Shown: piece by piece, positions 639 through 56,731 of the stretch
Position numbering within the stretch: the stretch's first letter is position 1
Layout: each line of letters opens with the position of its first letter
DNA from: Octopus vulgaris
Lineage: Eukaryota
DNA length: 64,000 nt
Direction of reading: 5' to 3'
NCBI GenBank assembly: GCA_951406725.2
Contig: OX597817.1
Coordinates: 110,546,001 to 110,610,000 of the forward strand
Program-made: the position numbers and the translations under genes
The notes under the pieces: generated by a model
The model's database searches: none
Seen by the model: only the letters and a program-made list of their open reading frames with translations
What the model was told of the DNA's origin: nothing

Positions 639-715
639 GTCTTACAGCTGTTTCGAGGATATCTCAAGTGGTAAGGCTAGGATGTCTGTACACTTGGTAT
701 TCTATCATCAGAGAC
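639..715 (-). ncRNA. Type I hammerhead ribozyme motif, degenerate (Penelope-type terminus)
   Basis: Minus strand reads GTCT-CTGATGA-[long stem II with CAAGTG/CACTTG]-GAAA-CAGCTG-TA-AGAC. Stem I is GTCT/AGAC, stem III is palindromic, and the triplet is GUA. The base of stem II is mispaired (position 10.1 is T). Confidence 0.65.
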
Positions 716-1140
716 AAGGTGTGTATGTATGAAAGTTCCATACAGGGAAATTCGCAGTTTATAAGGAATAAAATAGAAGAATAAAGAGTAAAAGCTGATA
801 GAAGAATACAGATAGGAGAATAAAGTTCACAGTTCATTTTTCCAGAGAGTATGGAGGTTGGTCTGTACTTTCATGGAGGTATAAGCCCTTAAGTATAATC
901 CCAGGTAAATCCAGGCAGTATTTTGAATGATGCATTCATGTTGAAGTAGGTATTTCCAATACTCTAGTCACTAAATGTGACAATTATAGTTTTCCTTTTT
1001 GGTTAAACATTTCAAACTGCTGTCTATTTTAATTTTATGTATACACATTAGCGATTTGCTAAATCATCCATAAATGTCTATGATGGAAACATATATACAG
1101 GCAGAGAATTAAGTCTGAAAATCTACTGAAGTAGAGCCAA

Positions 1141-1191
1141 TCCTTATTGATGAGGCAACAGAAATTGCAGAAACTGAATTCAGTATAAGGA
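1141..1191 (+). ncRNA. Type I hammerhead ribozyme motif, degenerate
   Basis: TCCTTA-TTGATGA-GGCAA(CAGAAA)TTGCA-GAAA-CTGAATTCAG-TA-TAAGGA. It has a 6-bp stem I, a palindromic stem III and a GUA triplet, with two departures from consensus (U3 and A11.1). Confidence 0.7.
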
Positions 1192-1382
1192 ATTTTCGAA
1201 TGGCATTTATGGATGATTATAGTCTCCGTCTGTGTATATATATATATACAATTATGTGCTTTGACAACAGGATTAGAACATTTTAGCTCTCTTATCTCTA
1301 GCAATGTAGGTGTTTCTAACACTTTAGTCACATTTAGTGACAATTATAATTTTCCTCTTTGGTAAAACATTGCAAACTACTA

Positions 1383-1422
<40 letters not shown>

Positions 1423-1424
<2 letters not shown>

Positions 1425-2270
1425 TACAATGGGTAAATTGTTACCATTTTATATTTTTAATTTTGCCATACACATTGTTTATTTTTGATTTTGTTGACTA
1501 CAGAATATAGTAGGGTCAGTTTGGACACCAGCTGTGAGAAAAATAGCACCATGACACAATTTGCTCTGCCATAAACTTGGAAAGAACATGCTGTATTGCT
1601 TGGCATTCACGCCAAAAGCTCCAATACGAACAGATGATGAACACGCAGAACAACGATTGACTTGCCTTGTCCCCAAAACATGTACTGAGAGTGATAAAAA
1701 TCAAACATCCAGTCAATATCATGGTGTTTGGAATGATCACTAGTGATAGGGACATTATACATCCATTCATCTTCCCACACAGCCTCACACTCAACATGGA
1801 GGCCTGCATCAAGTGCCTGGTGGAGGTAGTGCTGCCTGAGTCAAGAGGGTGGCTGCTGGAAGACCCTAAGTCTGACAACAGGACTCTGCACCATGTCACA
1901 CAAGCAGGAGAACCCAGTCATGGCTGTCAGATAATTTCTGTGACTACATCACTCCTAACATCTGGCCACCTAACCCCCAGACTGCAATCCCTTTGATTAT
2001 TATGTTTCAGCATGCAGTTGAGTGAGAGACCAACAAAACTTCAACAGCAAAAAAAATGAACTGAAGGAAAGGATTATGGTAGCATTCACCAATTTAAGGA
2101 GACTGTCCAGATGAGTTGCAGGAGATTCCAAAGTCATCTGGAGGCTGTGGTTGAAGACAATGGCAATTTTATTGAATAAATTTACTATTTAGTAAATATA
2201 TCTGTTAAAATAAGATGTCAGTGTTATTTTCATTTTTGCTTAATTTAGACAATATATTCACCATACCCTG
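1423..2270 (+). mobile_element. DD37D (maT-type) Tc1/mariner element, internally deleted and decayed
   Basis: Homologous to 58595-59525 (HPVNIMVFGMITSD..HPFIFPH; WPPNPPDCNPFDYY). It ends in ...ACCCTG followed by TA and is flanked by (TA)n. Confidence 0.85.
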
Positions 2271-2390
2271 TATATATATATAATTATTATTTGAGGGAAT
2301 AAAATCCAAACTTACAAGGAAAAAGAATTCAATTTAGAAATACTAAATCAAATTCCACACAATATAATATATATAAAATATTATATTTTT

Positions 2391-2477
2391 AACCTGATGA
2401 GTGACTATATTTATATGCAAGTGATTTCTCTACTACTATAATCACTTCTTAAATATAGCAGCGAAACACGTGTTGTT
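2391..2477 (+). ncRNA. Hammerhead ribozyme motif with extended stem II
   Basis: AAC-CTGATGA-[CTATATTTA/TAAATATAG plus AAGTGATT/AATCACTT]-GAAA-CACGTG-TT-GTT. Stem III is palindromic, but stem I is only 3 bp. Confidence 0.55.
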
Positions 2478-2628
2478 TTTCTACTTATTACATACATTAT
2501 ATTATTCTTGTAATTTACTTAATCTTTACTTTTTAATTATTTTAATTTTAACTTTTCTATTATATGTAATTTTCTAGATGCTGTAATTTAATTATTCATT
2601 TTGAATTGATAAAAGGTGTTTTTTTCTA

Positions 2629-2673
<45 letters not shown>

Positions 2674-2677
<4 letters not shown>

Positions 2678-2762
2678 ACAAAATTATACACATATAAGAG
2701 GACCACATATATGTATATATATAATGTATGTGGTCCTCTTATATGTGTGTAATTTTGTCTTT
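2674..2762. repeat. Fold-back (inverted repeat) adjoining (TA)n
   Basis: AAAGACAAAATTATACACATATAAGAGGACCACATA is mirrored by TATGTGGTCCTCTTATATGTGTGTAATTTTGTCTTT. Confidence 0.85.
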
Positions 2763-5252
2763 TTTGTCTACATATTCATCTGTGTGCCACACTCACACCT
2801 TTACCTAAGCTTGGAGAGCTTGGTTTATTTTCAAGCTTGCAACACTTGAAGTTGCATGATGCCAAATCAAACTTGTATTAAATTAGGTGTGTGTGTATGT
2901 ATGTATATAGATACATGGATGGATCGATCGATCGATGGGGGTAATTTAAATATTCAATTTTTAGTATGTATTTGGATGCATATAAGAATTCTTATGCACA
3001 TCTATGCACATTTTGATGTACTTACTTATGCATATCTCATACACATCCATCTATTACTCTCTCTCTCTCCCTCCCTCTCTCTCATTCTCTCTCTCTCCCC
3101 TCTCTTTCTCTCTCTCTCTCCATCTCTCCACAAGCTACATACATGCATATATACATACAGAAATACATATATTCACAAAGATATAGATATTTACTATTGC
3201 ATTTTTATTCATATTTTTCGTTTTGTAGATCATTGTTTCTGCTTATGTTTATAATGATGAAGTTATTTCGTTTCATGGTTTGGTAATTCTTTCCAGGATG
3301 TAGGATCTCTGTCTCATCAACTATTGATTTGTTGGCAAAGTCAGAATATGAGCTTCTTGATAGATTTCAATGACTCACTGTGAAGACGAGCAGCTAACAC
3401 AATCATGATTACATGTTAATAAATATTCTCTCTGCATCCGTGTTTCTTTCCATTGGAATATCCTTTGATGCCTCAGTACATGGACACTTATCTGGGTATC
3501 CAAAAGATGTAAGCATCTGAACAAGTTACTTTTGTGTTGATATGCATTTAATTGAAAAGCTTTCCTCATGCTATGCTAGCACATAAGCTGTCATGCCCTG
3601 TAGCCATGAAATTAACAAAGGTAGATTTAACAATAATGGTTTCACAATATCTCAAAGTACCACTTGTGGCTATCAAGCCTTTGTTCTTCCATACCTTCTC
3701 AATGAAGTAGTAGCAGAAGCAGTTGTTTTATTATGAGCAAGTTAAAGTTTGCCTTTCTAAAAGCAAACATTTCTGTGAAACTCTCTCTTTAAAAAAAATT
3801 CACTGACAACAGCACTAGCCGTCCACTTCAAAATGTTTCATCATTATGATCACTACTACCACCATTATCAGCTTTGTGACCGTCATCATAGTCATCGACA
3901 TGGCGATGATGATCATCATCATTATATTATCAATTCCATTATCATCACTACTACTATTACCACCACCATCATCATCATCATCATCATGCTATGTTTAATG
4001 GGTCCACAAAGCATCTACTTTTTGTAAAGAAAGAAAAGAAATTGTTTCGATTTTCTTTCTTTATAAGTATGTGAACAAAAGTGAGAAAGAAAGGGTGAGA
4101 GAAATAGAGAAAGAGAGAGAGAGAATGACTGGCTTTGAATAGATGTTGGCATTGTATATAATACATTTCTTTGCATATAATTAAACATACATTTTTTTTA
4201 CTTACTGATATCTTCAAAGTCATTGTAGGAATCTTTTATTTTTATGTCAAATAGTAGCAACTATTTTAGGTTATATTCTACTTATTTTACCAAAAATGTT
4301 GTCTTTACACATGATTGTCTTTTTGTTTTTAAAATTATTTATATAAATCCACGAGATATTACAATAGAATGGTGTATGAGGTGGAAAAATATCTAAATCT
4401 AATTAAGATCCCATTTTCTAATATTTTTACTTTTGATCACTCTTCTGTATAAAATTTTACTTTTACATTTTTATAATATCATTCAGTGATTTTTTTTTTA
4501 CAAGAGTTATTTTAAAACAAATAGAATGTGATGCTATGACATTTTAAACCTTTCGTAATTATCATCATCATAATCAAGAATTTTACACTCCCTTTTCAGT
4601 GCTGGCATGGATTTGATGGTTGTCACAATCTGAGTCGTTTCTTATTCAGAATTACCATCTTTCTAGTTGGGTTTCAGGACCACATTTTGCCTATGTATTC
4701 TATTTTTGGCATGGTTTCTGTAGTTGAGTGCCCTTCGTAACACCAGCCACTTTACAATATGTACTTAAATGCATTTTATTGTGAGAGCAGCATACTAGAG
4801 ATTGTCATAAAAATATTTATTGCTCACTGCATCTCAGTGATGAGCCATTCTCATCAGGGCCAGGAAATCCTTCACTTCAGATCAATTACTGACAATTCAA
4901 TTGCTGACTAAACTCTTGTCAGTTCCACAATATGGTTATTGTTCTCACATCTGGAGCAGTGCTACAAATACACATACACTATTATTGTAGACTGCATCCA
5001 AAATAGCTGATTAGGAAAAACTCCCCAACCATCACACTACAACCTCTTGGACACAGACATGTGGTTAATTAAATACTGCCTCATCACAAGCTCACTGACA
5101 CACCAATTTCTTCTCTTCTCATACTAGCCACTATACATAATCATCTCTACAACTAAATCTTTTGGAATTCCTTCTTTGTCCATTTTTACCCCCTGTCATA
5201 GACATGTACATAAGCTAAAAATTTACATACAGAATATATATATATATATATA

Positions 5253-5396
5253 TCATCATCATCATAATCGTTTAACGTCCGCTTTCCATGCTAGCATGGG
5301 TTGGACAATTTGACTGAGGACTGGTGAACCAGATGGCTGCACCAGCTCCAATCTGATCTGGCAGAGTTTCTACAGCTGGTCAGATCCGATTGGAGC
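5253..5396 (-). mobile_element. RTE-type tail fragment with a short inverted segment at its truncation point
   Basis: Same tail as 376-488. GCTCCAATCTGATCTG (5345-5360) is mirrored by CAGATCCGATTGGAGC (5381-5396). Confidence 0.75.
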
Positions 5397-5502
5397 CTTA
5401 ATCAAAGGACATACTGTTATTATCATTTTTAAATTGTTACACTAGATAATAACAGTCAATGATATCTTCGCAAATTATATATATATATATATATGTGTGT
5501 GT

Positions 5503-5862
5503 GTTAAGAAGTTTGGTTCCCAACCACATGATTCTAGGGTCAGATCCACAGCGTGGCTTCTTGAGCAAGTGTTTACTACTGTAGCCTCAGGCTGACCAAA
5601 GTCTTGTGAGTGGATTTGGTAGACAGAAATTGAAAGAAGCTCATCATATATTGTACATATATGTGTATGTGTGTGTGTTTGTATGTGTCTTTGACTCCCC
5701 TCCCACTGCTTGACAACCAGCGGTCTGGCATAAGAGACTGATAGAATAAGTACCAGGCTTTAAAAGATGAGTACTGGGGCTGATCAGTTTGACTAAAATT
5801 CTTCAAGGTGGTGTCCCAGCAAGGCTGCAGTCTAATGACTGAAACGAGTAAAAGAATAAAAG
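5503..5862 (+). mobile_element. tRNA-derived CORE-type SINE (octopus OR-like), diverged
   Basis: Aligns by eye with the well-preserved copy at 15951-16360 (CTTGAGCAAGTG core; GACTGAAAC..GTAAAAGA tail). Confidence 0.8.
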
Positions 5863-6164
5863 AATATATGTATATATGATGGCAGTCCACTTGTGACGAA
5901 GGAAGACCATCACTGACCGTTAAGAACATTGTGCACCCAGACAGAATTATACTTACAATGTACACATATACACATCAAGAATATTTGTGTGTGTGTAAAT
6001 TGTTTTCCTGGTTTTAGTTATTGGCCTGCAACTTTGTTGTATCAACACCTTGAAGGATTTTTAGTCGATCATAATCATGCCAGTACTTATTTCAATCTGG
6101 TACTATTAACAATGAACAAGGCTGGTTTTCAAACCAATGTAACACAAACACATTTACCAAGTCC

Positions 6165-6802
6165 TTTGTGAGCCGCTCTCCGGCTATCTATCTGCGGCTT
6201 TATATAGCTATGGTAAGACTTCACCTAGAATTTGCATCACCAGTCTGGAACCCCTATCTTGCCCAGGATATTAATCGTCTGGAAGCCGTTCAGCGACGTG
6301 CAACCAAAAGAATACCCTCCATCAGGCATTTGCCATATTCTGAACACCTTACTTCCCTGGGCATGGATACATTGAAACTCCAACGTCTGGCAGCTGACTT
6401 AGCAGTCACCCATAAAATTATTAACCATTTTACAAACAATAACTCTGAGCACCTTTTCAAACTCCACCCGTCTAACACCCGTGGACATATTTACAGTCAG
6501 AAAACAACACAGCTCCCATGACTTTAGGAAACATTTTTTTACGCTGAGAGTTGCTGAAGCATGGAACAAACTGCTGGCATCAGTTGTTAGTTGTCGGAGC
6601 ACTGCATCCTTCAAAACTTCCATGCTTTCTGGGATTTGCCAACACTACACCTGATTTTCTCCCCTCCATATACACACAAGCATGTATCTGACTCATACAT
6701 TGTTCGCTTTCTAGACATTTGTACATTACTGCATAGACTTTATACGCACTTTCTGACAAGTTGTGGTGCACCTGAGCACTGTATACAATAATTTCATTAT
6801 TA
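6165..6802 (+). mobile_element. CR1/L2-clade LINE 3' end (RT C-terminal region plus 3' UTR)
   Basis: ORF 6168..6521 reads LYIAMVRLHLEFASPVWNPYLAQDINRLEAVQRRATKRIP, typical of the CR1 ORF2 C-terminus. It has an (ATT)n tail and a near-identical sister copy at 35646-36015. Confidence 0.9.
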
Positions 6803-8132: not shown

Positions 8133-8231
8133 GCTTATATATGTATATATCTGAAAACAAGGTGATGCACAAGGCCCAGTTATCATGTTTTTATTCTCTC
8201 TACTATGGCTGGTATATTGGTTAGTGCATTT

Positions 8232-9578
8232 TATCATCATCATCATCATCATCATATGCTGGCATGGGTTGGATGGTTTGACTGAAGACTGGCAAGCCAG
8301 AAGGCTGCACCAGGCTCCAATCTGATCTGGCAACTGCTCCGCTTCCTAACGCCAACTGCTCCGAGAGTGTAGTGGGTGCTTTTTATGTGCTACTGGCATG
8401 GGAGCCAATCAGGCAGCACTGGCATCGGCCATGCTTGAATGGTGCTTTCTACATGCCAGTGAGGCAGCACTGGCATCAGCCATGACTAAGATTTCACTTG
8501 ACTCAACAGGTCTTCTCAAGTAGAGCATACTGCTTGATGATTGAAGGACACTTTTAAATGGGTCAGTTATACAACACTGGTATCAGCCACAGCTATGATT
8601 TCACTTGGCTTGTTGGAGCTTCTCAAGCAAAGCATATCTCCAAAGGTCTTGGTTGCTTGTCATTGCCTCTGTGAGGCCCAACATTCAAAGGTCATGCTTC
8701 CCCACCTCATCCCATGTCTTCCTGGGTCTACCTCTTCCACAGGTTCCCTCCACTGTTAGGGTGTGATACTTCTTCACACAGCTGTCCTCATCCATATGCA
8801 ACACATGACCATACCAGTGCAGTCATCTCTCTTGCACACCACATCTGATGCTTCTTTGTCCAACTTTTCTCTCAGAATGCTTGCACTCTGTCGTGTATAC
8901 ACACTGACATTACACATTCAGCAGAGCATACTAGCTTCATTTCTTTCAAGCCTATGCATGTCTTCAGCAGTCACAGCCCGTGTTTCACTGCCATGTAGCA
9001 TGGCAGTTAGCACATATGCATCATACAGTCTAGCTTTCAGTCTAAGTGAGAGGCCCTTTGTTACCAGCAAAGGTAGGAGCTTTCTCAACTTTGCCCTGGC
9101 TATTCTTATTCTAGAAGCTATGCTCTCAGAGCATCCACCCCCACTACTGACTTGGTTACCTAGGTAACAGAAGCTATCAACCACTTCTGGTTTTTCCCCC
9201 TGGCATATGAAGGAATCTGTTTTCTGTACATCTTCAGTGCTTATTGACCCTGTGCCACACACAAAAAATATCTTCCCAGTTAACCTTTCTTTGATATTGC
9301 TGCACCTCTTATGTGTACATAGCTTACACTGGGTACATCTTATGGAGTTTCTACCTATGCCTTTTCTACAGATCGAGAAGGGCCATCTACCTGAAGGGAA
9401 TTGTGATTTGTCTGCCTTCCTACTTACTAAGACCTTGGTTTTTGCTAGATTGACTCTAAGACCCTTCAATTCTAGACCTTGCTTCCACACCTGAAACTTC
9501 TCTAGTTCTGGTAGTGACTCAGCTATTAGAGCAAGGTCATCAGCATAGAGGAGCTCTCAGGGGCAGCCTGTCTTGAAT
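8232..9578 (-). mobile_element. 5'-truncated RTE LINE (same family as 59584-61214)
   Basis: Minus strand has ELLYADD and ORF 8918..9490 (GLRVNLAKTK...SFCYLG...MLHGSET), followed by the 3' UTR and a (GAT)n tail. Contains stops and indels. Confidence 0.93.
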
Positions 9579-10090
9579 GTTTATGAAAATGTTTTTGTCA
9601 TTGAACCCTAGTCTGAATGGCTGTAGATTTAACCGAATAATATATAAATATATATAACAAGAACAAGAATGAAGAAAACCACATCTTTAATTTGTGATTA
9701 TACCATACATTACCGATGATCATTTCTATGTGCTAGCATGTTTAAGTGATATTTAGATTTACTTGTCATACATGAAGAATTACCTTGGATGTTAATTCTA
9801 CTTGAATTTATTGGTATCTGATTGTTTGATATAGTTAACCAATTTCATTTAACACTGAGTGCTTTATAGATATTTGCCTGGATTTATTAATCCCTTTTAT
9901 TTATATATATATATATATAAAATAATAGTTATCGCCATACTAATATGGCATTCTTATAAAAATAAGAAAAAAGCTGTCCGCTTATTAGCTCCATGAGGCC
10001 ATCGCCTTAAGTTAGCTATTTGATACACAAACTGTATCCATATAACCTTCGAACAAGGGAGGTCAGTCACTCCACACTACTTGACCGGCA

Positions 10091-10132
10091 GCTACAGACG
10101 CGTTTCGGAGTATTGCCCCTTTTCAATGCAGC
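10091..10132 (-). ncRNA. Minimal type I hammerhead ribozyme, U3-A8 core variant, intact copy
   Basis: GCTGCA-TTGAAAA-GGGG(CAATA)CTCC-GAAA-CGCG-TC-TGTAGC. Stem I extends through GGCTGGC/GCCGGTC and CACCTACT/AGTAGTGTG. Confidence 0.8.
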
Positions 10133-10339
10133 GTAGCCAGCCAGTAGGTGTCGCTTCCGACAATCTCTGTTCGATGGTTTTATTTACCTAGTTTCGGTGG
10201 AATACATCCACTTGTTTTCAATAATAGAAATATTAAAATAACTAAGTCTCTCTAAAAGAGAACAGCGGCAGCGTTCCCGGAAAATAATAGTTATCGCCAT
10301 ACTAATATGGCATTCTTATAAAAATAAGAAAAAAGCTAC

Positions 10340-10381
10340 GCTGCATTGAAAAGGGGCAATACTCCGAAACACGTCTGTAGC
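10340..10381 (+). ncRNA. Minimal type I hammerhead ribozyme, U3-A8 variant (stem III CACG)
   Basis: Same motif as 10091-10132 with CGCG changed to CACG. Predicted cleavage is after C10375. The upstream stem I extension is cut off by the inversion junction. Confidence 0.7.
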
Positions 10382-10700
10382 TGCCGGTCAAGTAATGTGG
10401 AGCGACTGACCTCCCTTGTTCGAAGGTTATATGGATACAGTTTGTGTATCAAATAGCTAACTTAAGGCGATGGCCTCATGGAGCTAATAAGCGGACAGCT
10501 TTTTTCTTATTTTTATAAGAATGCCATATTAGTATGGCGATAACTATTATTTTCCGGAATGCTGCCGCTGTTCTCTTTTAGAGAGACTTAGTTATTTTAA
10601 TATTTCTATTATTGAAAACAAGTGGATGTATTCCACCGAAACTAGGTAAATAAAACCATCGAACAGAGATTGTCGGAAGCGACACCTACTGGCTGGCTAC

Positions 10701-10742
10701 GCTGCATTGAAAAGGGGCAATACTCCAAAACGCATCTGTAGC
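10701..10742 (+). ncRNA. Hammerhead motif copy, probably inactivated (G12>A, G16.2>A)
   Basis: GCTGCA-TTGAAAA-GGGGCAATACTCC-AAAA-CGCA-TC-TGTAGC. Both changes are CpG>CpA. Confidence 0.65.
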
Positions 10743-10965
10743 TGCCGGTCAAGTAGTGTGGAGCGACTGACCTCCCTTGTTCGAAGGTTATATGGATACA
10801 GTTTGTGTATCAAATAGCTAACTTAAGGCGATGGCCTCATGGAGCTAATAAGCGGACAGCTTTTTTCTTATTTTATAAGAATGCCATATTATATGGCGAT
10901 AACTATTATTTTCCGGAACGCTGCCGCTGTTCTCTTTTAGAGAGACTTAGTTATTTTAATATTTC

Positions 10966-11004
<39 letters not shown>

Positions 11005-11008
11005 TATA

Positions 11009-12583
11009 CAATATCTCACTGAAGTATGTGCACCCCTAAATAATTTCAGTAAAATCATCATTACAGTGATAATATCGAAGGAAATCAAATGAAATTTATA
11101 CTGAATAAAATGTATTATACAAGCAAACATAATACAAATTTGGAACACAAAACAATAAACATTTTCAAAGATAAGAATGAAATATTAATTTTCAAACGTT
11201 ACAAAAATATGTTCACCCTAAAGGAAATTTGCTATATTCAGTATTTTATCCACTTTTTTTTTATTAAATTCAGATATTGTTGATAATTCTAATTCTAATA
11301 AATTATTTCTCCTGACATTTTTGCGCAGGTCATTGATATTGCATCTGCAGGAATTCTGATTTGTGTACTGTGGTGAAAATCTTCATTGTGATTAAAATGG
11401 CACCAATAGGAAATGTCTGAAAATTTGAAGAAAACTATTTTTAATTTGCACAAAAATGGTTTAGGATACAAGTTAATTAGCAAATGAATACATATTAGCA
11501 TAAACACTGTTGCCAAAGTAATTCAGAAGTACAAAGCTACTGGACAGCTAAGTAATAAGCATCATCCAGGTCGTCCTTCTATTTTAACTACATGTGATAT
11601 TCACCACATCTAACATTGTGCTTCATTTTCGGCCTAAGAATTGTCTTCTGTTAGTGCAAATACTGTATCCACCCAAACAGTTTGATGAAGTTTGAACCAG
11701 TGTGGTCTTCATGGACACATTCCTCATAGGAAACCTCTCCTCACTACCAAACATAAATCAAGTTGTTTTACTTTTGCCGAAACTATGTGAGTTAGGGGAA
11801 GGAGTTTCGAAATAAAATTCTTGTTTCTGACTAGACTAAAATCAATTTGTTTGGGTCAGATGTTATTAAATGAGTATGACGACGGCCAGGAGAAGATAAT
11901 AGCAACAAATGCACTATGCCTACCATGAGACATGGCAGTAGAAGTGTTATGTTTTGGGGATGCATGAGTGCAGCCAGTGTAGGAAGACTCACATTTATTG
12001 AGAACTGTGGATTCAAGGCTTTATTGTGACATATTGAAAAGCATCAAGGAACTATGAAGACATTCCATGTTTCAACATGATAATGACCCTAGACACACTT
12101 CAAAGATGACAACTAAGTTTTTATCAGATAAAAAGGTAAAAGTATTGCCTTGGTCTACTATGTCACCTGATTTAAACACAATAGAACATCTGTGGAGTGT
12201 TTTGAAAAGGAAGGTTGAGGAGAAAAAAACTCCACAATGTAACACAGCTGAAAGACATCATTCAGGATGAATAGAGGTCAATTTCATCGGTTATGTGTCG
12301 AAATTTAATCAACTCTATGTCCAGAAGACTTAATGCAATCATTGAAAGCAAGGGCGGTCACACCAAATAATCCTTTAGGATATGCATATTTTTGTATCGT
12401 TGGAAAATTAATATTTCGTTCATATCTTTGAAAATGTTTATTGTTTTGTGTTCCAAATTTGTATAATGTTTGTATAATATATTTTATTCAATATAAATTT
12501 CATTTGATTTCCTTCAATATTATCAGAGTAATGGCAATTTTACTGGAATGTTTTGGGGGTGTACATACTTCTGTGAGATACTA
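11009..12583 (+). mobile_element. Tc1-family (DD34E) DNA transposon with ~215-bp TIRs
   Basis: TA|CAATATCTCACTGAAGTATGTGCACCCC ... GGGGTGTACATACTTCTGTGAGATACTA|TA. The long inverted repeats span about 11009-11226 and 12371-12583. Confidence 0.93.
11397..12370 (+). pseudogene. Tc1 transposase pseudogene
   Basis: FQHDNDPRH...WSTMSPDLNTIEHLW has 34 residues between D and E, and the frame ends GGHTK*. Several stops and frameshifts. Confidence 0.9.
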
Positions 12584-12988
12584 TATGTGTATGTATGAAC
12601 TTAAATTTTCATCTTACAGCAACAATTTAAATCATAATATAAATGTCTTCTTGAATTTCTTCAACAGAATATACATGCTAAATGGAATTTTTATTCAATT
12701 ACTAGACTAGTGTGAATTAAAATGAGAGACACTGGTTTAGCCCAATTCAATATTTTCATATTAGTTATTTATAAGAAAATGATTTCATAGTGTGTAATAT
12801 CCTTTTTTTAATTTTTTTTTTTTTGCTTTTTTTGCTCTGCATATTGTATATATCATTATTGATTTCTCACTTCCATCTTACTTTATTAGGGTAGTGAAGT
12901 GACAAAAATAGCTGAGGGTTGGACCAAATGCCTAGAAGTATTTAAGCAGGTTTTTTTATATTCTTTGTTCTAATCCTGATAGTGTTTA

Positions 12989-14870: not shown

Positions 14871-14872
14871 TA

Positions 14873-21708: not shown

Positions 21709-21835
21709 ATGCTATTATATTATATTGTATTATATTATATATCATCATCATCATCATCATCATTTAACGTCCGTTAAATGATGATGATGATGATGATGAT
21801 GATATATAATATAATACAATATAATATAATAGCAT
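21709..21835. repeat. Near-perfect hairpin palindrome centred on an RTE-tail stub
   Basis: ATGCTATTATATT...(ATC)7ATTTAACG-TC-CGTTAAAT(GAT)8...AATATAATAGCAT. Confidence 0.92.
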
Positions 21836-22882: not shown

Positions 22883-23060
22883 TATAAACAGGGGCAAAAG
22901 GAAAATTATTTCCATGCCAATATGCTAATAACAGACTTTTAAATCGTCAATTTCCACATATTATTATATACCCAAATAATAATATGTGGAAATTGACAAT
23001 TTAAAAGTCTGTTATCAACATATTGGCATGGAAATAATTTTCCTTTTGCCCTTGTATATA
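22883..23060. repeat. ~85-bp-arm fold-back within a (TA)n-flanked insert
   Basis: GGGCAAAAGGAAAATTATTTCCATGCCAATATG...CACATATTATTA is mirrored by TAATAATATGTG...CATATTGGCATGGAAATAATTTTCCTTTTGCCC with only a few mismatches. Confidence 0.9.
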
Positions 23061-30449: not shown

Positions 30450-32670
30450 TCCATAACCCTGGCTGACTCTTTTGGTTTAAGGGGAGAGTTGGGGAGTTGG
30501 TAAGCATTGATGCACCAGATTTGTGGAAGACTTTTAAAGAAGGGGTACTAAAGGCATGTGACAAAGTGTATGGAAGGATGAAAGGTAGGAGAGATTGAGG
30601 AGATACATGGTGGTGGAATGAGGAGGTGAGGGATGCGATAGCGAGGAAGAAGGAGGCACACAAAGCTTTATGTCATAATAGGACTGAGCAAAAGAAATCC
30701 AGGTATGATAACATGAAGAATAATGCAAAGAGGGTGATTGCGAGATCTATGAGGAAGGAGGCTGAGGAGAGGTTGAGCGGGCTGGATGAGAACCCAGATA
30801 GAGTGTTTAGGTTTATTAAATCAATGAAAAAATGGCAGAGATGTTGAGGGTGGAACATGCATGATGGAAGGTTGAATTTTAGTGAGAAGGAGAAGGGAAG
30901 AGTTTGGAATTATGAATGAGGAGAATGAATGGGATCAGAGGGTGGAAGTTGTGAAGGGGCCAGTAGAGAGGATTAGTCAGGAAGAAGTAGTGGAGGCAAT
31001 GAAGGAAATGAAAAGAGGAAAGGCATCTGGTCCATCAGAAGTAAGTGTGGAAATGATAACTGCAAGTGGAGAGATAGGGATTGTTGTGATGATGGAACTC
31101 TATCAGGGTGTGCTGGATGGAAGAGGAATGCCAGATGATTAGGCACTAAGTATGATGGTACCAATCTTCAAGGGGAAGGGGAATGCGATGAGTTCTGGGG
31201 TGTATAGGGGAGTGAAGTTATTGGAGCATGCAATGAAGATAGTGGAAAGGGTTTTGGAGAGGAGAATTCAGAAAGGGGTGGATGTGGATGAGATGCAATT
31301 TTTTTTATGCCAGGAAAGGGGACAATAGATGCAGTGTTCATTGTAAGGAGATTGCCAGAGAAATACAAAGATAAGAAGGAATTGTGCATATGCTTCGTTG
31401 ATCTGGAGAAGGCATTTGATAGGGTTCCAAGGAAGGTGATTGAGTGGGCATTGAGGAAGAGAGGTGTACTAGAGGTAATAGTGAAGGCAGTGATAAGTTT
31501 ATATGAGGGGGTAAAGACAAGAGTTAGAATTGGATCAGAGTTGTCAGAGGAGTTTTCAGTGAAAGTTGGTGTGCATCAGGGAGCTGTGTTGTTACCGTTG
31601 TTGTTTGCAATAGTGGTTGATGTGGTGATGGAGAGTGCAAGAGAAGGATTGATAATGGAGATACTGTATGTGGATGACCTTGTTCTGATGAGTGAGATGC
31701 TGGAGGGATTGAGGGAGAAGTTTTGGAAATGGAAGGAGGTATTTGAAAGCAAGGGTTAGAAGGTAAACCTCAGGCAGACAAAGGTGATGGTGAGCGGGGT
31801 GGAAGGAGAAGTATTAGTGAGTTAGATGGATCCGTGAGGTGTATGTTGGAGGAGGGTAATGGCAAATGCAGTGTTGTGTACGAGATGTGAGAAATGGATT
31901 CATGATAGATGTACAAAAATGAAGAAGGTGACCCCAAGACTGGCAAGAGAGTTTGTTTGTGGAAGATGTGAGAAAGGAGCTGGAGGGCTGGCAGAACCAG
32001 TGGAACGTTATGTGATGAGGAGGAAATGGTGAGAGGATTTTGTTATGTAGGAGATAGGATGGATGTAAATGGTGGATGTGAAGCAGCTGTGACAGCAAGA
32101 GCAAGACTTGGCTGGGTGAAGTTCAGGGAATGTGGAGTGTTGTTATATGGGAAAAGGTTCTAATTGAAGATGAAAGGAAAGGTCTATAGGAGTTGTGTGA
32201 GAGCTACGATGCTATATAGACATGAGACATGGTGCCTTGAGGGAGAGAGATGGCAATTTTGAGAAGGACCGTGAGAGCAATGGTGAGAGAAATGTGAGGA
32301 GTGAAGCTGTTGGATAAGAGGAGGTCTGAGGACTTGATGGTGATGCGGGGGTTGGAAGAATTGGTGGAACAGCTGGCAAGGGTGAATGGAGTGCAGTGGT
32401 ATGGGCATGTGTTGAGGAGGGATGGGGAGTACGTTTTGAAGAGGGTACTTGAGTTTGAAATAAATGGACCACAAAAGTGAGGTAGATCCAGGAAAATGTT
32501 GAGGGGACAGGAATGAGGAGATTGGGAGGGTTGGCTTGAGAAGGGAGGATGCGCAAAACAGGGCAAGATGGTGTGAGGGCAGTTGCTATGGCATTGAGGT
32601 AGATCCAGCCACCCCTGTTAATAGGGACAAAACCTAGATTTAAAACACTAGATGATGATGATGATGATGA
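30450..32670 (+). mobile_element. RTE LINE (second family), 5'-truncated and decayed, covering most of the RT
   Basis: Motifs TWWWNEEV, KASGPSEV, FVDLEKAFDRVPR, GVHQGAVLLPLLF, ILYVDDLVL, FCYVGD and WYGHVLRR are present, followed by a (GAT)n tail. Frameshifts and stops. Confidence 0.93.
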
Positions 32671-32844
32671 TAATCATGAAATACTTGGTGAATAAAGGGG
32701 TAAAGCACTAGAAGTTGATCAAGGCTACTACTTTTGAAATATTTGAACCACTTTATTGCTTGTGTACTTTAACTAATAAACATTTTAAATTTGTACTTGT
32801 TGCCTGAGATGTAAATTATTTCATATCTTGAGAAAGGAATTTCA

Positions 32845-37050: not shown

Positions 37051-37052
<2 letters not shown>

Positions 37053-38639: not shown

Positions 38640-38675
<36 letters not shown>

Positions 38676-38699
38676 CCATGTTGGACTGCTGAACTCGAC

Positions 38700-38870
38700 A
38701 AGTTTTTTCATTCTTTCTCTGTTTATTTTCTCTTATTCCTTTCTGTTGAAGAGTGTAGGCTCGAAACATAAAAGACTTTTTCATTTTTCCCTAGCATCAA
38801 ACTAATACACCTGCTTGTTGTTTGTACACCTGTCTTTGTCTTTTGTTTTTCTATAAATTTCAACTATATA
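38700..38870 (+). mobile_element. Short Penelope-terminus-like repeat with an atypical HHR-like motif
   Basis: CTTT-CTGTTGA-A-GAGT(GTAG)GCTC-GAAA-CA-TA-AAAG at 38739-38774. It lies between (TA)n tracts and has a related inverted copy at 39003-39185. Confidence 0.55.
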
Positions 38871-39002: not shown

Positions 39003-39185
39003 TAGGGGAAGAATTCACAAAAAAAAAAGACAGCTGGTGTAGACAACAAACAGATGTATTAATATAATGCTCGGGAAGTGAAAAAGTCTTTAACATTTCG
39101 AGCCTATGCTCTTCCACAGAAAGGAACACAGAAAGAAACAAGGAGAGAAAATAAAGAATGTGTGGCTAGTGATCTACCATGGCAA
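39003..39185 (-). mobile_element. Related copy of the 38700-38870 repeat, inverted
   Basis: Minus strand reads CTTT-CTGTGGA-A-GAGC(ATAG)GCTC-GAAA-TG-TT-AAAG at 39088-39123 and shares the downstream TAATACA.CTG.TTGTTG block. Confidence 0.55.
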
Positions 39186-48800: not shown

Positions 48801-49878
48801 ACACAATTCTTCTCAAATAAATTTTGTTTATCAAAAGATTTAGAAGCTGGCTTTCATTGAGAGCCAAGCAATATTTTATCTCTCAGCATGTACTTTTCTC
48901 AGAAGCGATATAGCATGCATCCATATATCACTGCTATTCTAGGATGCATTTAAAAAGAAGCTGGCCAATTGATTCAATAAACCATTTCTAATTTTTAAAA
49001 AAACAAACCCAAGACCCTGTACTTCTGCAGTGTTATTTTCACTTTCTGCTCATCTCATCAGAACCTTCTGCTTGCTCTCCACTTATTAAAGAATTACAGC
49101 TTTCAATTGATTTTTCACTACCTATTATGTACCTATAATATATTTTTCAACACAAAATCCCAGTTATTTGTTTTAAATAATCAAAGAGAGAAGTAGAGCA
49201 GCAGTGCCCATAATCTTTCCAGGATAGTGGAAACTGGTAGAGATTAATGTAGTTAATTCTCAATTTGAATTCTTGACAGTTAGGTGCAAACATAGACAAG
49301 GAAAGAGTTTCAGAGAATACTGTCAGATCTGCTTACCTGGTTAGAATTTAAGAAGCAAAGAAATTTCCCCTTCTCGATAAGACTAGGTTAAGATAAGAGA
49401 GTGCAAAAGTTGAATTGTTATATGCATGCTGAGAATTTAGCCTATGATAAATCTGTGAGATGACATTTAACAACAGTTTTATTTGTATTCTCTATTGGTC
49501 AATAAATCAATGTAGCTGTGACAAGCTATATGAACTATTATAAATAATACGTATGAAATGAAGCTTCAAATTATCTCAAAGTAGTGAATATCTCTGAGAT
49601 GAAGAGCATTCTACAGGTCTTTTAATCATCACCATCATAATGATGATGATGATGATGATCATCATCATCATACATCTAACTTCCATGCTAGCATGAGTTG
49701 GACAGTTTGACAGGAGCCAGCAAGATGGAGAGCTGCACCAGGTTCCAACATATATATATATGAATGTATGTATGTATGTATGTATATATATAAATAAACA
49801 ATTGCAGTGGGGAAGGTGTTTATAAGCCATTTAAAAACACACAAAAACCATTAGACTCACTTCAACATTTAAATTTAA

Positions 49879-49929
49879 TTTGCCAAAATATTTTCGTCGC
49901 TTTGAGACCGCAACCTGATCACTGACAAA
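49879..49929 (-). ncRNA. Minimal type I hammerhead motif, G3-C8 core variant
   Basis: Minus strand reads TTTGTCA-GTGATCA-G-GTTGC(GGTCTCAAA)GCGAC-GAAA-ATAT-TT-TGGCAAA. It has a 7-bp stem I, a 5-bp stem II and a palindromic stem III (AATATT), and lies in a ~150-bp insert adjoining (TA)n. Confidence 0.6.
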
Positions 49930-50882
49930 ATTCCATGCTAAGCATCTGCTTTTCCATGCTTGTATGAGTCAAACAAAGTTTATTGAGTCAATTTTTCTAC
50001 AGTTTAAATTATAAACTACTACTACTATTACTGCTGCTGCTGTTGCAATTATTTGGCAGAATTTACAGTGTGGATAGAAAATGTTGAAGGTTCATGTGTA
50101 TGCACATAAACACACACACACAAACACATTAACATGCTTACACATACATACATACCTGTATTTTGTGTGTGTGTGTGCGTGTGTGTGCAGGCATGAAAAG
50201 TGACTAAGGTATAAACTTATTCAAAAAATTTTCCCTCAAAATAATGAGTTTGTACTTTACTTATGTAAGAAAACAAATTTAACAATGATCACTGAGAGCT
50301 TTCAGTGATTATTTTAATATAATGTTGGTATCAAAATAGCAACAGATATTTTCATATACTATAATTTCTCAATGATTGTGTCATTAACGAAACAATGAGT
50401 AAAATTGTTGCCTTACAGCATTTAACCCTTTAGCATTTAGCTTACTCTAACAAATATAATGCTTATTAATTCACATTGTTTTGAATTAAACATGCATTAT
50501 CTTGTAGCTTTGAGATTTTTTTAGATTGACATTGTAGGGTAAGTACAAGAGGCTGGATTCTTTCCAATTTTAACATAAAATATGAAACTTACAAATATGA
50601 AACTTAGTGCAATTAAAAGAATTCAGTGTATGTATAATTTTCATTTACAGATGCAGATAGTTAAAAAGTTTACTTTGCACTCATGAGATCCCAGCTTTGA
50701 TCCTATTGTGTGGCATCTTGGATAAGTCTGTCACCATAGCTTCGAGGCAGTCTGAGCCTTGTTCATGAATCTGGATAGACAGAAACTATTTGCATGGCCG
50801 TTGAATGGATTTTACCAATAAATCAAAGATCCAGCCTTGTCATACCCTGTGCTATACTGATTCTTTCTGAAAATTACATTAA

Positions 50883-51000: not shown

Positions 51001-52037
51001 TTAAGGATACACTTGTGAATGGACTATTCAGCAAATCAGTCATTCAATGAATATCCCTTTTCATTGACTGAAAAATTGAAATATTCATTGTGAAAACCAA
51101 CAGAGACCTATGTATTATAATTTTATTCTATTTATAAATACAGAAGTCTTTGATCTGCACTGTTTCAATACATATTACGAGTCAAAATATTTTGAAATTA
51201 AATGATAAAACATACACAATATATGATTTCAGCTGAATTTCTGATTTTGGCCTTTTGCTCCATGCTCAGACAATTAACAAGCATCAAATGTTACTTGTTC
51301 TCCATAATTTTAAGTGTAAAATGTTTTCAACTTGTAAGAAATGGAAAATATATAATTTACATTATAAGTACTAAGTTCTTTATCTTGTAAAACCAAGGTT
51401 CATTAATTTTTAATTACTAGCTTTAATATAAATCCCTAATGGCCTAATGTTGAAACTTTAAACTTCATCAACTATGGAAAACATTTTACTTTCTTATGTT
51501 TTTGGTATGTGTTTATATTGTATATGTTTCAATTTTAACTTTTCTGGAATTGTAGAATTGTAGTTTTCTATAAGCATTGAGAAAACTTCATTCATATCTT
51601 ACAACCATTTGCATAACAAACTTTGCTTAGATTTCTAAACTGAATAATTCAGACAGATGTTTCCTGATTCCACCTACTTGTATTATTTTTGTCTAAGATT
51701 AATTTTCAAAATGAAAGGTAACCTGTTACAAGAACTGATTCTTTGTAATCCTAATTCTTGAGCAATATGTCATGCTGAGTTTGTACTTTCCACCTCTCTA
51801 AAAAAAAGGAAAAAAAAATTGATGCTAAATAGATTTCTCACTCTCAACTTTTTAAAAACATTTTCTGCCATTGAACAGAAGCTTTGAAAACTTGAATTAA
51901 TGAGAAAGCACCTACTTAGTTGCTCAAGGAACATTTATCTTCTTTCACATTATGCTTTGTGCATATGATGAGTTGTTATTAATTTTACAATATCTCTCTG
52001 TTCTTATATAGTTTATATTATAACTAATTATTATCTA

Positions 52038-52243
52038 TTTATCTTCCTTTCTTTATTTTCTTTCTTTCTTTCTCTTTCTTCCTTCCTTCCTTTCTTTCTT
52101 TCTTTCTTCCTTCCTTTCTTTCTTCCTTTCTTTCTTTCTTCCTTCCTTCCTTCCTTTTTTCTTTCTTTGTTTCTTTGTTTCTTTTTTTCTTTGTTTGTTT
52201 GTTTGTTTGTTTGTTTCTTTGTTTCTTTCTGTCTTTCTTTCTT
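52038..52243. repeat. Compound (CTTT/CCTT/GTTT)n microsatellite
   Basis: Direct reading; it explains the K/E/R-rich ORF 52039..52266. Confidence 0.92.
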
Positions 52244-52334
52244 AACATGGATGTATTGCTAGACATTAATTTTGATATAAAGATTGCCTTTTGGTATTAA
52301 TACCACCTCCATTGCCAATAAATTATATATACAC

Positions 52335-52660
52335 ATGTGATCCGAGTGTGATCGTTGCTAGGGCCGCTGACTGGCTTCCGTGCCGGTGGCACATAAAATG
52401 CACCATTCAAGCGTGATTGTTACCAGTGTTGCCTTACTGGCACTTGTGCCGGTGGCACGTGAAGAACAACATTTGAGCGAGGTCGTTGCCAGTACCACCT
52501 GACTGGCCCTCATACTGGTGGCACGTAAAAGCACTCACTACACTCTCGGAGTGGTTGGCGTTAAGAAGGGCATCCAGCTGTAGAAACTCTGCCAAATGAG
52601 ATTGGAGCCTGATCCAACCATCTGGCTTGCCAGTCCTTAGTCAAACTGTCCAACCCAAAC
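52335..52660 (+). mobile_element. RTE 3' UTR/tail fragment
   Basis: Repeated GGTGGCACGTAAAAGCAC units followed by CACTCTCGGAGTGGTTGGCGTTAAGAAGGGCATCCAGCTGTAGAAAC. Confidence 0.85.
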
Positions 52661-53150
52661 CATTTTCTCTGAAAGAAAAATCTTTTGTTACTAACAGAAA
52701 TAATTTGGTTCCCAGAATTTTCTTTATCTTGTTCTAAGGCTGATCCAAAAGTATAATCAGAGTTTCTCATTGCTAACTAGATTACTGAGGCAACAGAAGC
52801 CATTTGCTCCTTCTAGGAATCTAAAAAGATCCCTAGAAGTAAAAATTGTATTTAAAAAGCAAGATTGTGTTTTAAAAAAACTGTATATAAAATTGTAACA
52901 AAATAAAAATAAAAATTTATATATTGCATTGTTTGTGTATGTGTGTGTGCATATGTATGTATATATGTGTGTATGTATCTATATATATATATATACATGT
53001 ATATATGTATATTTGTTAAGGTATTGTTCCTTTAATATGTAAGTTACCAACATTTTTATTGATGCTTTTGATGGAAATTTTTACATTTGTATTCAGGTAG
53101 CAATAGCTGTTGAGATACCTTTTAACAGACAAACCTGACATTTTCATGTA

Positions 53151-53333
53151 CTGTTTGTATATATGCCTGTCAAAACAGAAGTAGTTGTTGTTCATATTCA
53201 TAGAGAACAGTGGCTATATATCCAAGGGAGATAAAGCAAAACAGTCTCCATTGCTTGAAGAAAGATAATTTGTTTGGAAATCACAACTGTGAATGACACC
53301 TACATCTGTTTTGACAAGTGCATATACAAACAG
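53151..53333. mobile_element. MITE-like inverted repeat
   Basis: CTGTTTGTATATATGCCTGTCAAAACAGAAGTAG is mirrored by CTACATCTGTTTTGACAAGTGCATATACAAACAG. The outer ends are unresolved. Confidence 0.6.
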
Positions 53334-53668
53334 GCTGTAAGATTATCAATGGGCTTGAGTTTATCAGAGTTATTAATGATCTTAGGCATGGAAATGGTGA
53401 AGTACAGATTGCTTATTGTTTGCATCCTCTTGCACATTCTTTGAGATATACTCTTTTACTCATTTCAGCCTTGTAGCTGCTGTTATGCTGGATCACTTTG
53501 ATAACATTTTTATGAAACACCTGATGGAATCAAAATTCATTAACTCTTTGATATTCAATAACTTTTGAAAGTAAAATGTCAACTTCTACAGACATTCGGG
53601 ACATAAAGATTTGTTTCACCACTTCCAATCAGCTTTGCTGCTTTAGTGATAATTCATTATTTCAATGA

Positions 53669-54174
53669 CTAGCAGTATCGCCCGGCGTTGCTCGGGTTTG
53701 TAAGGGAAATAACTATATAAGCATTTTTAGAGAGTTACTTCCCTTATAAATTCGGGCTTTCTTAGCCATTTTTGTTTTGGTGTCTTCAAGCCATGAAGTC
53801 GTTGTTCTAAAAGAACGCTGGTTTCCTTCACAACGCATTACGACGTTGATTTCTTTACACTCCCTTCCCCACAGCTTCACGAGGGAGGGAAGGGGGAGAA
53901 GCAAAGAGGTGCAGCTGTGAGCGTGGACGCCAACTCCGCCGCCATCGACATACGATGCATTTTATGCATTAAAATGGAATAAAAAATGATGTTAAATTAT
54001 TTTTAAAATCGTAGACTCATCGTTGACGCGCGCTAATAGTCAGACGGGCTCGATATGAATCACGACTATAAGATACCCGAATTTGGTTAAACTGCACCGC
54101 AAAATGTGGGAGGAGTTAGGAATCTAAATCGAAGGGGACAGACACTCACACAACTAGAGTTTTATATATATAGA
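53669..54174 (-). mobile_element. Non-autonomous Helitron with a distinct internal segment
   Basis: Same TC...hairpin-CTAG termini as 21928-22322, with an A|T target. Confidence 0.88.
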
Positions 54175-55624
54175 TATAGGAAACAAAAATACCATTTGTG
54201 AGTGATCTTTATCAGAACAAGTGCCCTGGGCAACACATCAAACTGCGCATCTTGCAGTGGAGCTTCAACTCAGGAGTTCAGGAATTTGGTGGGGAAAACA
54301 GTTATCTCTTAGTTACCATTACTCTGCGGTTAGCTTTGGGGTGGTAGCACATGTCAAGGGCCTCAGTTATGGGTCATATAGCAAAATGTGGTCCAATGAC
54401 TAAAGCATATTGGGGTCAGGAGTGCTGGCCCCTAAACATGTGTCATACAGGCCTACTGGTGTGTTGGCATACCTTGATGTTACATTACCGAAAATTTATG
54501 TAGGCTTTGTTCTTTGATGGTAAGCTCCAAAGAGATGGAGATTAGTAAAGGAAATTGAAAATAAAGCAGAAAGTAACAAGAAACCACCATTGTATCTTTC
54601 CAAGAAAAATCATGAATCTTTAGATTATGATGACATGCAAGTCCATGATTGCTGGCACCAATACGCATGATATCTGTAGATAGAGATTAGAATATAGCCA
54701 TAAAAGAACAAGAAAAAAATGGATATAAGACAAAAGAATTGTCCAAAATTCTTGCTAATTTAGGCACCTTATTCAAATGCATGTTTTATATCTAAGTGAT
54801 TACTTATTATTTCCCAAGTAAATTCTGATCATGAAGACCTATGGTCAAAGGCATTTCAGCTATGTCAATTTTTAAAAACTTATCTTTCTTCTTTTTGATA
54901 TGAAAGAAAACGAAGGAGACTTGACTGGTATTTGTAGCAGGTCATGTAACAATTCTTTCAAGTCATCAGTAATTTTGTACAGAGAGAAGAATTCATATAA
55001 CATTAAATCTGCCTGTTTGAGGACTTCTTTAAAAAGCTGTCTCTACAGCAATAGAACCCCTGATTGCCACAGAATATGAGCACTGCTTGATTAAAAATGC
55101 TTATAAATTCTTTAAAGCTTATAGGTGAGAGGTAACAATTTTTACAAAGGCAGAATCATGCATTTACTATTTATTAGACATTAGGTAGTTCTTGAATATG
55201 GCAGCCTGATCTATTTAAAGGCAACTTGACAGCTGCCAGAATAACAGAAATTATGGTTTCTATCAAGACTTTTAATAGAAACCTTGGATATTTATATGCT
55301 AAAAAAGCAATACAGTTAAAGCATTTGCAATCACAAATTTGCAATGGTCATGAGTTCCGCAACTGTCAGTTGTTTGTTGTATGATTTGAAAATTACTGTG
55401 CACATGTCTTTACATCTCTGTTTATCTCATAATGGGTTGGGTGTGTTTACAGTTAAATCCTTGTTTTACATATTTCAGTTCATGATATAGGTTGTTAAAG
55501 CCAAATCACTGAATAAATTACTCCCAATTTTGCATTGTTAAATGTCTTTTATTACCTTTCTGATTCTGTCCATTGCCTCAAGTAAACTAGCAGTTTTACT
55601 TATATCTGAATGTGTGTATGTATG

Positions 55625-55680
<56 letters not shown>

Positions 55681-56488
55681 TGTGTGTATCAAGTTAGATA
55701 ATGTCTATATATTGTGATTTAGATGCATAACCGTCAAGATGCTCATTGCATACTTGAGGTAAATCATGTAGTTAGTTATGTATATGGAGGTAAATATGTA
55801 TTTAGAAGCATTCCCTGGTTTTACATAAATATCTGTGTACATATCAATGATTCCAGAAGGTGCTAAGTAGAAGATCATTATTGCCCACATAAATACCTTC
55901 ATGAAACCATGGTATAGACACATCTGATTACCTTTGGAAGTAGGTAGACACTTGCATGCACGAATCTACACAGATATACATTCCCACTTCTGCACATGGT
56001 AATTACATCATGCAGGCACATGTTTTACAAAGCATTTTCTAATTACAATAAATCCAATCATAAGAACTAAGCCTTCCTCTCTACCTAACTTTTAAAATTT
56101 CCTCCTAAATGATTGTTCTCCCATACCAGTAACTAGCAACACTTAAGACTTTCTCATTTTTCATGTTCTTGCTCTTTTACCAGTTTATTATACATCCCCT
56201 GCCCTCCCCTCATCCACTCTACTTACCTGTGTCCCTGATATGATTGAGCCTCTTTTATCTTTTAAGTGTTTCAGTCATTAGACTGCAGCTGTGCTGGGGC
56301 ACCACATTCAAGAACTTTTAGTCAAATGAACTGAGCCCAGGACTTCTTTTTTAAAGCCTGGTACTTATTCTACCAGTCTTTTTTACTGAACTGCTTAGTT
56401 ATGGGGATGTAAACAAACCAAAACTAGTTGTCAAGTGGTGATGGGAGACAAACACAGACACAAAGATATACACACACAGACATGTTTT

Positions 56489-56529
<41 letters not shown>

Positions 56530-56595
56530 GGTCCCGGGTTGATTCGGGGTTAACCACAGTAAATAAGGTACTCAATACATAGTAGAGTAAAATTA

Positions 56596-56729
56596 ATTTA
56601 TTATATAGAAGGAGCTTCTACAGGACTAGAACTGTTTCATTCAAGAGAAATCTTCAGGAAGCCGGCTTCCTGAAGATTTCTCTTGAATGAAACAGTTCTA
56701 GTCCTGTAGAAGCTCCTTCTATATAATAA

Positions 56730-56731
<2 letters not shown>
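56596..56731. repeat. Perfect 136-bp palindrome
   Basis: Centre GAAGCC|GGCTTC at 56663/56664. The arms match base for base out to 56596 and 56731. Confidence 0.95.
56665..56713 (+). ncRNA. Type I hammerhead motif (mirror copy on minus strand at 56614-56662)
   Basis: GCTTC-CTGAAGA-TTTC(TCTT)GAAT-GAAA-CAG(TTCTAGTC)CTG-TA-GAAGC with a GUA triplet. Stem II is weak (U-U at 10.1/11.1). Confidence 0.65.

Follow-up and report, generated by a model that had tools for sequence, protein, structure and literature searches.

Type I hammerhead ribozyme motifs in short repeats of Octopus vulgaris and their probable origin in Penelope-like elements

A 64,000-nucleotide stretch of the Octopus vulgaris genome (contig OX597817.1, positions 110,546,001 to 110,610,000; hereafter the window) contains seven sites with type I hammerhead ribozyme (HHR) motifs, each located in a short repeat. 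In all probability, four of these repeats are pseudo-LTRs (pLTRs) of endonuclease-bearing Penelope-like elements (PLEs) that occur, intact or broken, elsewhere in the genome, and the other three are likely non-autonomous derivatives that use the same enzymes. The repeat families, labelled F1 to F7 in order of position (Table 1), differ in the base pair between core positions 3 and 8, and F5 has U rather than A at position 6. An earlier note, made from the letters of the window alone, had described a diversified, TA-microsatellite-targeting Penelope/retrozyme ecosystem with unusual catalytic-core diversity.

All seven sites show the type I order (5' strand of stem I, N3UGNNN8A, stem II, GAAA, stem III, UH, 3' strand of stem I), and both family majorities and descriptor matches give a three-way junction with its ends in stem I. 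Every site named in the earlier note was confirmed, each in a repeat found across the 2.8 Gb genome that was searched. The families are also unrelated in sequence, as claimed, since alignment among the seven window elements gave nothing beyond 13-19 AT-rich nt. A relaxed descriptor matched the window 6 times compared to 0.63 ± 0.83 times in 40 block-wise dinucleotide shuffles (maximum 3), and a strict descriptor matched 4 times compared to 0.1, both descriptors having been written after the sites had been seen. The density of matches within the window is therefore above that of the shuffled control which the note had proposed. F1, F3, and F5, with decayed window copies or interrupted stems, were missed by the descriptors. 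Two structural details needed revision. A short palindromic stem III, attributed to most sites, is found in six families, but F7 has an ordinary hairpin; and of the three F4 motifs at 9.9-10.9 kb one is intact, but the other two are not.

Genome-wide, candidate copies numbered 1,280 for F1, 174 for F2, 1,350 for F3, 1,172 for F4, 3,274 for F5, 1,972 for F6, and 210 for F7. For each family the best 40 candidates were scored, and 30 copies, including the window copy, were retrieved and aligned. Taking the majority at each position, these alignments restore full stems and cores. C3-G8 was found in 28 of the 30 copies of F1, 26 of F2, 30 of F3, 25 of F5, and 30 of F7, while F4 had U3-A8 in every copy and F6 had G3-C8 in 29. 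In F1-F4, F6, and F7, A6 was present in all 30 copies, a Watson-Crick 3-8 pair in 26-30, and the family core agrees with the consensus (N3 U4 G5 A6 N7 N8 A9 / G12 A13 A14 / A15.1-U16.1 / H17). Exact-pattern searches of the genome yielded 903 matches for F4, with U3-A8 in 99 of the first 100 listed, and 1,287 for F6, with both G3 and C8 in 94 of the first 100 listed. Reversed-pattern controls gave 0 matches for F4, F5, F6, and the sister family described below. The three 3-8 states reported earlier thus stand at family level in the alignments of 30 copies, namely C3-G8 (F1, F2, F3, and F7, together with F5), U3-A8 (F4), and G3-C8 (F6). The U3 seen in the F2 copy at position 1141 is real, but it is a change private to that copy in a C3-G8 family. 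F2 additionally has two subfamily forms of stem III, which differ by a two-sided change. Judged by identity, F4 and F7 are young (99-100%), F3 and F6 are intermediate, and F1, F2, and the window F5 copies are older.

The F5 core is C3 U4 G5 U6 N7 G8 A9, with a bulged A, a 4-bp stem II, GAAA, CG, and UH. As it does not have the A6 of the consensus, F5 was filed as a core variant and not as a consensus member. A 34-nt F5 pattern with positions 6 and 7 left free had 13,039 exact matches in the genome. Position 6 was U in 97 of the first 100 listed, and among those 97 position 7 was U in 39, C in 24, A in 23, and G in 11; position 17 was A or U, the only letters which the pattern itself allowed there. 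In the older F5 copies, position 6 was U in 20, C in 8, and A in 2 of 30. Four runs, each with a different organism label, yielded F5-type contigs in which the core variants listed (at least 5%) were confined to positions 7 and 17, with G avoided at 17. The 3-8 pair, the bulge, G10.1-C11.1, and the palindrome are all kept.

Four families (F3, F5, and F7, and more tentatively F1) are tied to PLE open reading frames (ORFs) with reverse transcriptase (RT) and GIY-YIG domains elsewhere in the genome, either on the same strand or in an inverted-pLTR arrangement. In 29 of 30 loci of a young PLE, an F5-type HHR follows the ORF in the same orientation, at a distance of 0.3-1.1 kb from its end. Moreover, in five of six longer loci it is present as direct repeats ~4.5 kb apart around an open frame of 1,100-1,200 codons. 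This frame combines the DKG and YIDD motifs with a CX4CX2C linker and with a GIY-YIG domain whose halves have two Cys between them, features that fit the account of Neptune/Nematis elements, the motif definitions being those of Craig et al. (bioRxiv 2021.04.23.441226; this and the other works cited are used for the parts of them consulted). PLE assignment was made by motif because Pfam barely recognises the proteins (GIY-YIG E 0.009 on one fragment). The window F5 copies are 73-83% like the F5-type pLTR and are therefore an older relative that falls outside its subfamily.

In 19 of 20 loci, F7 is located downstream of the GIY-YIG ORF of a second PLE, 1.5-4.9 kb away and in the same orientation. 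In locus L327 an inverted F7 is fused to the truncated 5' end of the partner ORF, and in L196 a pLTR runs into an ORF start, with another pLTR after it. The 3' region of the F7 partner (L328-L347) includes ~3 kb of TA/TG-like simple sequence; some microsatellite-like DNA is therefore spread by the element itself. F3 was found in L211 (which looks like one and the same locus as L217) as an inverted pLTR, a broken RT/GIY-YIG ORF, and two tandem pLTRs. Between the ORF end and the pLTR of this element there is ~2.3 kb of AT-rich DNA (L211:4757-7040), of which other copies share at least 1.2 kb and which is possibly an antisense coding remnant. Tandem or inverted 5'-truncated insertions, as known for endonuclease-bearing (EN+) PLEs, are present. 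Two apparent links were rejected, since the ORFs beside F1 in L214 and beside F4 in L212 are those of other PLE families, which have pLTRs of their own. In the window, tblastn found no PLE ORF and the RT fragments present (8918-9556, 31292-31759, and 59464-60618) look like LINE pieces, in agreement with the statement that the inserts carry no recognisable RT ORF.

F2 (361 nt) and F4 (362 nt) are non-coding units repeated head to tail, every unit having a single type I HHR, and F3 is also arranged head to tail, with a 411-nt unit and one type I HHR. F4 arrays contain up to at least nine units at 99-100% identity, and F6 is a ~210-nt unit with a recurrent 5' start. F2, F4, and F6 share the insertion signature of PLEs, that is inverted 5' pieces, TA junctions, and no poly-A. 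A long ORF in one F4 array (L213:1737-6603) was identified as an inserted intact two-ORF LINE-type element (370 and 1,140 codons) and was rejected as an F4 partner.

The window is rich in TA/TG microsatellites, and adjacency to them was examined at 3' junctions set by alignment, which replaced a fixed-offset test; 11 F4 rows and one F3 row were dropped as belonging to the same array or locus. (TA)3 was found at the 3' junction in 13/30, 11/30, 23/29, 18/19, 19/30, 16/30, and 30/30 copies of F1 to F7, respectively, compared to 7-19% of random 20-nt windows from the same loci. The signal is clearest in the youngest families, as expected if insertion is targeted to TA and the tracts then decay. 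Most of the window inserts do adjoin TA repeats, but F1 is separated from the tract that ends at 375 by another repeat, located between this tract and ~489. With four families linked to PLE ORFs, two consisting of ~361-nt tandem units, and 3' ends enriched in (TA)n, the Penelope/retrozyme reading of the earlier note is upheld.

From the observed motifs, copy numbers, ORF linkage of F1, F3, F5, and F7, tandem and inverted arrangement, and TA-rich junctions, a common mechanism can be proposed. A tandem or read-through transcript would be cleaved at the HHR at a slow rate and probably in dimeric form, via the palindromic stem III. The GIY-YIG domain of the element would nick (TA)n DNA, and the RT would copy the RNA from near its 3' end, usually stopping early or switching strand. 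The outcome would be short, 5'-truncated, often inverted HHR-bearing stubs such as those in the window. F2, F4, and F6 would depend on PLEs for their insertion.

Altered cores were also found outside the window. A sister minimal-HHR pLTR family is 75% like the F5-type pLTR over 65 nt (E 4e-8) and has 11,420 exact matches in the genome; among the first 100 listed, A6 is present in 99 and C4 in 77, and the U4 copies may be the result of CpG decay. This family is absent from the window, and in one of 30 loci a Neptune-like ORF lies inverted upstream of it. Two further young PLE families also have C4, the first in 30 of 30 motifs and the second in 31 of 32. One (L325:87-2129 and L438-L467) is a very young PLE with more than 120 ORF copies at ~100% identity and 775-codon frames, and in all 30 loci its pLTR HHR combines C4 with U-U at the base of stem II. 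The other (L349-L377), a third PLE family, has an HHR with a long stem II and C4 in the 31 of 32 motifs mentioned. The intact and abundant elements here thus mostly have a non-consensus core or a basal U-U pair in stem II. In the 1.39 Mb of flanking sequence, which is a non-random sample, at least eight further HHR sequence types were seen (for example from L325:5980 onward and in L192, L197, L263, L309, L317, and L372), among them two more candidates for U3-A8 (L138 and L192).

HHRs with U3-A8, G3-C8, or A6U are predicted to function as ribozymes, though at a slower rate, and an altered fixed catalytic letter in very abundant families likely slows cutting. A more far-reaching idea is put forward tentatively, as one that may well prove wrong: the most successful PLEs may have repeatedly and independently detuned their HHRs (A6U in one lineage, U4C in three, U-U in two, plus G3-C8 and U3-A8), selection having favoured slow cleavage gated by a dimer, a protein, or metal. 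A6U and G3-C8 would then be new natural working cores. If this were true, slow cleavage would preserve long multimeric RNA, so that it could be translated and reverse-transcribed. Of the unusual core diversity claimed earlier, G3-C8 stands among the states that had been read, but U3-A8 and the heterogeneity are published, and the oddest core, A6U in F5, had not been named. Only part of the diversity is unusual because the ecosystem, the heterogeneity, U3-A8, and the TA bias have already been described (PMC4209133; bioRxiv 2021.04.23.441226).

Several observations weigh against the explanation by PLEs and working ribozymes. A scan of the window with Rfam gave no hammerhead among 49 matches at E<=1. 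In folding, no single window motif reached z < -2 against shuffles, and the minimum free energy (MFE) structure was not the hammerhead fold for F1, F3, F5, and F7; single-sequence folding is uninformative for these motifs. One descriptor match outside the seven sites (32685-32746) is probably due to chance, and four further loose matches were also treated as such. The Rfam result, the folding scores, and the match at 32685-32746 would suit the view that the motifs arose by chance in AT-rich repeats. However, this view is hardly credible and has already been refuted by the family-level data: family majorities complete the stems and cores, the descriptors exceed the shuffles, the motifs are positioned in pLTRs of PLE ORFs, and the reversed controls are empty. 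Covariation of positions 3 and 8 is seen only between families and not within them, because F4 and F6 each descend from near-identical masters. The F1 link is weak: in three of 30 loci, remnants of an endonuclease domain (E 7e-12 to 7e-5) precede the F1 upstream segment in the same orientation, 400-1250 nt upstream of it. The TA-microsatellite bias stands as an enrichment of 3' ends over random windows, but contact with TA was also seen for non-HHR repeats, namely two SINE-like ends (24/48 and 24/69 cases) and one other repeat (15/32), in a rough comparison with 30-nt control windows for the non-HHR repeats and 20-nt windows for the HHR families. TA bias is therefore no mark of HHR families in this genome.

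For a lizard PLE, it was found that mutation of the HHR did not stop insertion in vitro and that no RNA ends were detected at the cut site (PMC11167929). This would fit a different account of the variant-core motifs, A6U above all, in which they are dead or vestigial: a master lost cleavage, for which the element had no need, the change spread with this master, and the stems were retained because they serve elsewhere, for instance in RT binding. Moreover, A6C strongly lowers activity in Mg2+ (PMC3088659; PMC7151607), and in the predicted MFE structure of the F5 monomer U4-N7 pairs with the GAAAC strand, although such pairing could be an off state that a dimer could open. Nevertheless, F5 subfamilies vary only at positions 7 and 17, which are free in HHRs, with G avoided at 17 in the contigs, and they retain the pair, bulge, and palindrome listed above; loss of function is thus considered unlikely. 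F2, F4, and F6 could also be independent of PLEs, either as circular-RNA retrozymes or as SINEs, moved by the enzymes of LINEs or through RNA replication of their own. The earlier note had proposed to link each family to PLE RT ORFs; such links were found for F1 (weakly), F3, F5, and F7, but F2, F4, and F6 had no consistent partner ORF within 1.5 kb in 30 loci each, in a search that was not exhaustive and in which two other PLE families were also tested. The long arrays of near-identical F4 units point in the same direction. On the other hand, all three families share the PLE insertion signature, and animal retrozymes are derived from pLTRs in a 2026 preprint (10.64898/2026.07.22.740005), so that independence from PLEs seems quite improbable.

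The motifs of the window are listed in Table 1.

Table 1. Hammerhead motifs in the window (F4 region, 9.9-11.0 kb; F5 sites, 38.7 kb and 39.1 kb; F7, 56613-56714 on both strands)
Feature	Position	Strand	Description
F1 HHR	639..715	-	C3-G8; long stem II decayed at base; palindromic stem III; inside ~489-900 fragment, old PLE 3' end
F2 HHR	1141..1191	+	Family core C3-G8, U3 in window copy; ~1.2 units of 361-nt tandem repeat (946-1399), then (TA)16 at 1390-1422
F3 HHR	2391..2477	+	C3-G8; long interrupted stem II; pLTR ~2290-2635 with inverted 5' piece, ends in (TA)19
F4 insertion	9920..10971		Young 362-nt unit; inverted and tandem copies, flanked by two TA tracts
F4 HHR copy 1	10091-10132	-	Intact, U3-A8
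F4 HHR copy 2	10340-10381	+	Stem III changed
F4 HHR copy 3	10701-10742	+	G12 lost
F5 minimal HHR	38739..38774	+	U6 (core CUGUNGA); bulged A; stem II of 4 bp; stem III a 2-nt palindrome, decayed in this copy; element 38673-38865, TA on both sides
Second F5-type minimal HHR	39088..39123	-	U6; 79% like F5 copy at 38739..38774
F6 HHR	49879..49929	-	G3-C8; 7-bp stem I; bulged G; 5-bp stem II; AAUAUU stem III; U17; element 49790-49945
F7 inverted HHR pair	56613-56663 and 56664-56714	- and +	C3-G8; U10.1-U11.1 mismatch; stem III a hairpin; within young pLTR end 56528-56731, TA tract on either side

Other elements were found between these sites. The RT fragments at 8600-9556, 31292-31759, 59464-60618, and 6075-6521 are presumably LINE pieces and have no relation to the HHR repeats. 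Directly after the F4 TA tract, inverted ends of ~230 nt surround transposase-like remnants (10996-12596), an element that is probably Tc1/mariner. Near-perfect inverted repeats without a hammerhead core occur at 22883-23060, 2676-2760, and 21735-21811, and produced false miRNA matches with Rfam.

Whether the cleavage rate of PLE hammerheads matters for transposition could be examined with a natural series present in this genome, namely intact and homologous elements of high copy number with differences at single catalytic positions (U6 and A6, C4 and U4). In such genomes, tens of thousands of motifs escape a search with the consensus core or with Rfam. In a repeat annotation of Octopus vulgaris, 31 Penelope-like families are given as recently active, and the word ribozyme is not used in the part consulted (PMC13282606). 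PLE hammerheads, their sequence heterogeneity, the presence of many families per genome, U3-A8, (TA)n bias, and retrozymes are already known, and the A6U and G3-C8 PLE cores are new as far as could be checked. The literature search found no natural A6U or G3-C8 PLE family, its scope leaving out Lunse et al. 2017 (RNA Biol, on PLE HHR variants), which may list them. An engineered G3-C8 variant is the only one in the consulted part of PMC3884650.

The minimal and small-stem-III HHRs described for the pLTRs of metazoan PLEs (Cervera and De la Pena 2014, PMC4209133) are similar to those found here in their type I order, the unpaired base between A9 and 10.1, G10.1-C11.1, and the palindromic 15.2-16.2 or short palindromic helix III. 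They also occur as many families per genome, mostly as solo truncated copies, with opposite-strand pairs 100-700 bp apart and one U3-A8 family (S. mansoni). In contrast, the text and supplement rows searched contain no A6U or G3-C8 family and no cephalopod. Neptune and Nematis EN+ PLEs (Craig et al. 2021, bioRxiv 2021.04.23.441226) likewise have a C-terminal GIY-YIG after the RT, a Zn-finger linker, tandem or inverted pLTRs, an optional tail, and microsatellite/(TA)n bias. That work describes (TA)n bias in Naiad and Hydra and a bias towards microsatellites in the canonical clades. The Neptune and Nematis labels used here are based on motifs and not on a tree with reference sequences, and unlike those elements the F7 partner has a ~3 kb 3' region rich in simple repeats.

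Tandem retrozymes have been described (Cervera and De la Pena 2020, PMC7229834) and were tied to pLTRs by Li et al. in the 2026 preprint cited above. The units of the mussel non-LTR retrozymes (350-390 bp) are close in size to those of F2 (361 nt), F4 (362 nt), and F3 (411 nt), and U-U at the base of stem II is shared by F7 and the axolotl HHR_Amex2 (PMC7229834; Li et al. 2026). Unlike those retrozymes, F4 has a U3-A8 core. Natural HHRs with U3-A8, A6C, U4C, and U10.1-U11.1 were found to be slower but still active (Perreault et al. 2011, PMC3088659), and A6C, in Bcep176, makes Mn2+ the preferred metal (PMC7151607). Neither A6U nor natural G3-C8 occurs in the consulted parts of these two papers. 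The variants they describe are rare single examples, whereas in this genome the U6 and C4 cores are each present in more than 10,000 copies.

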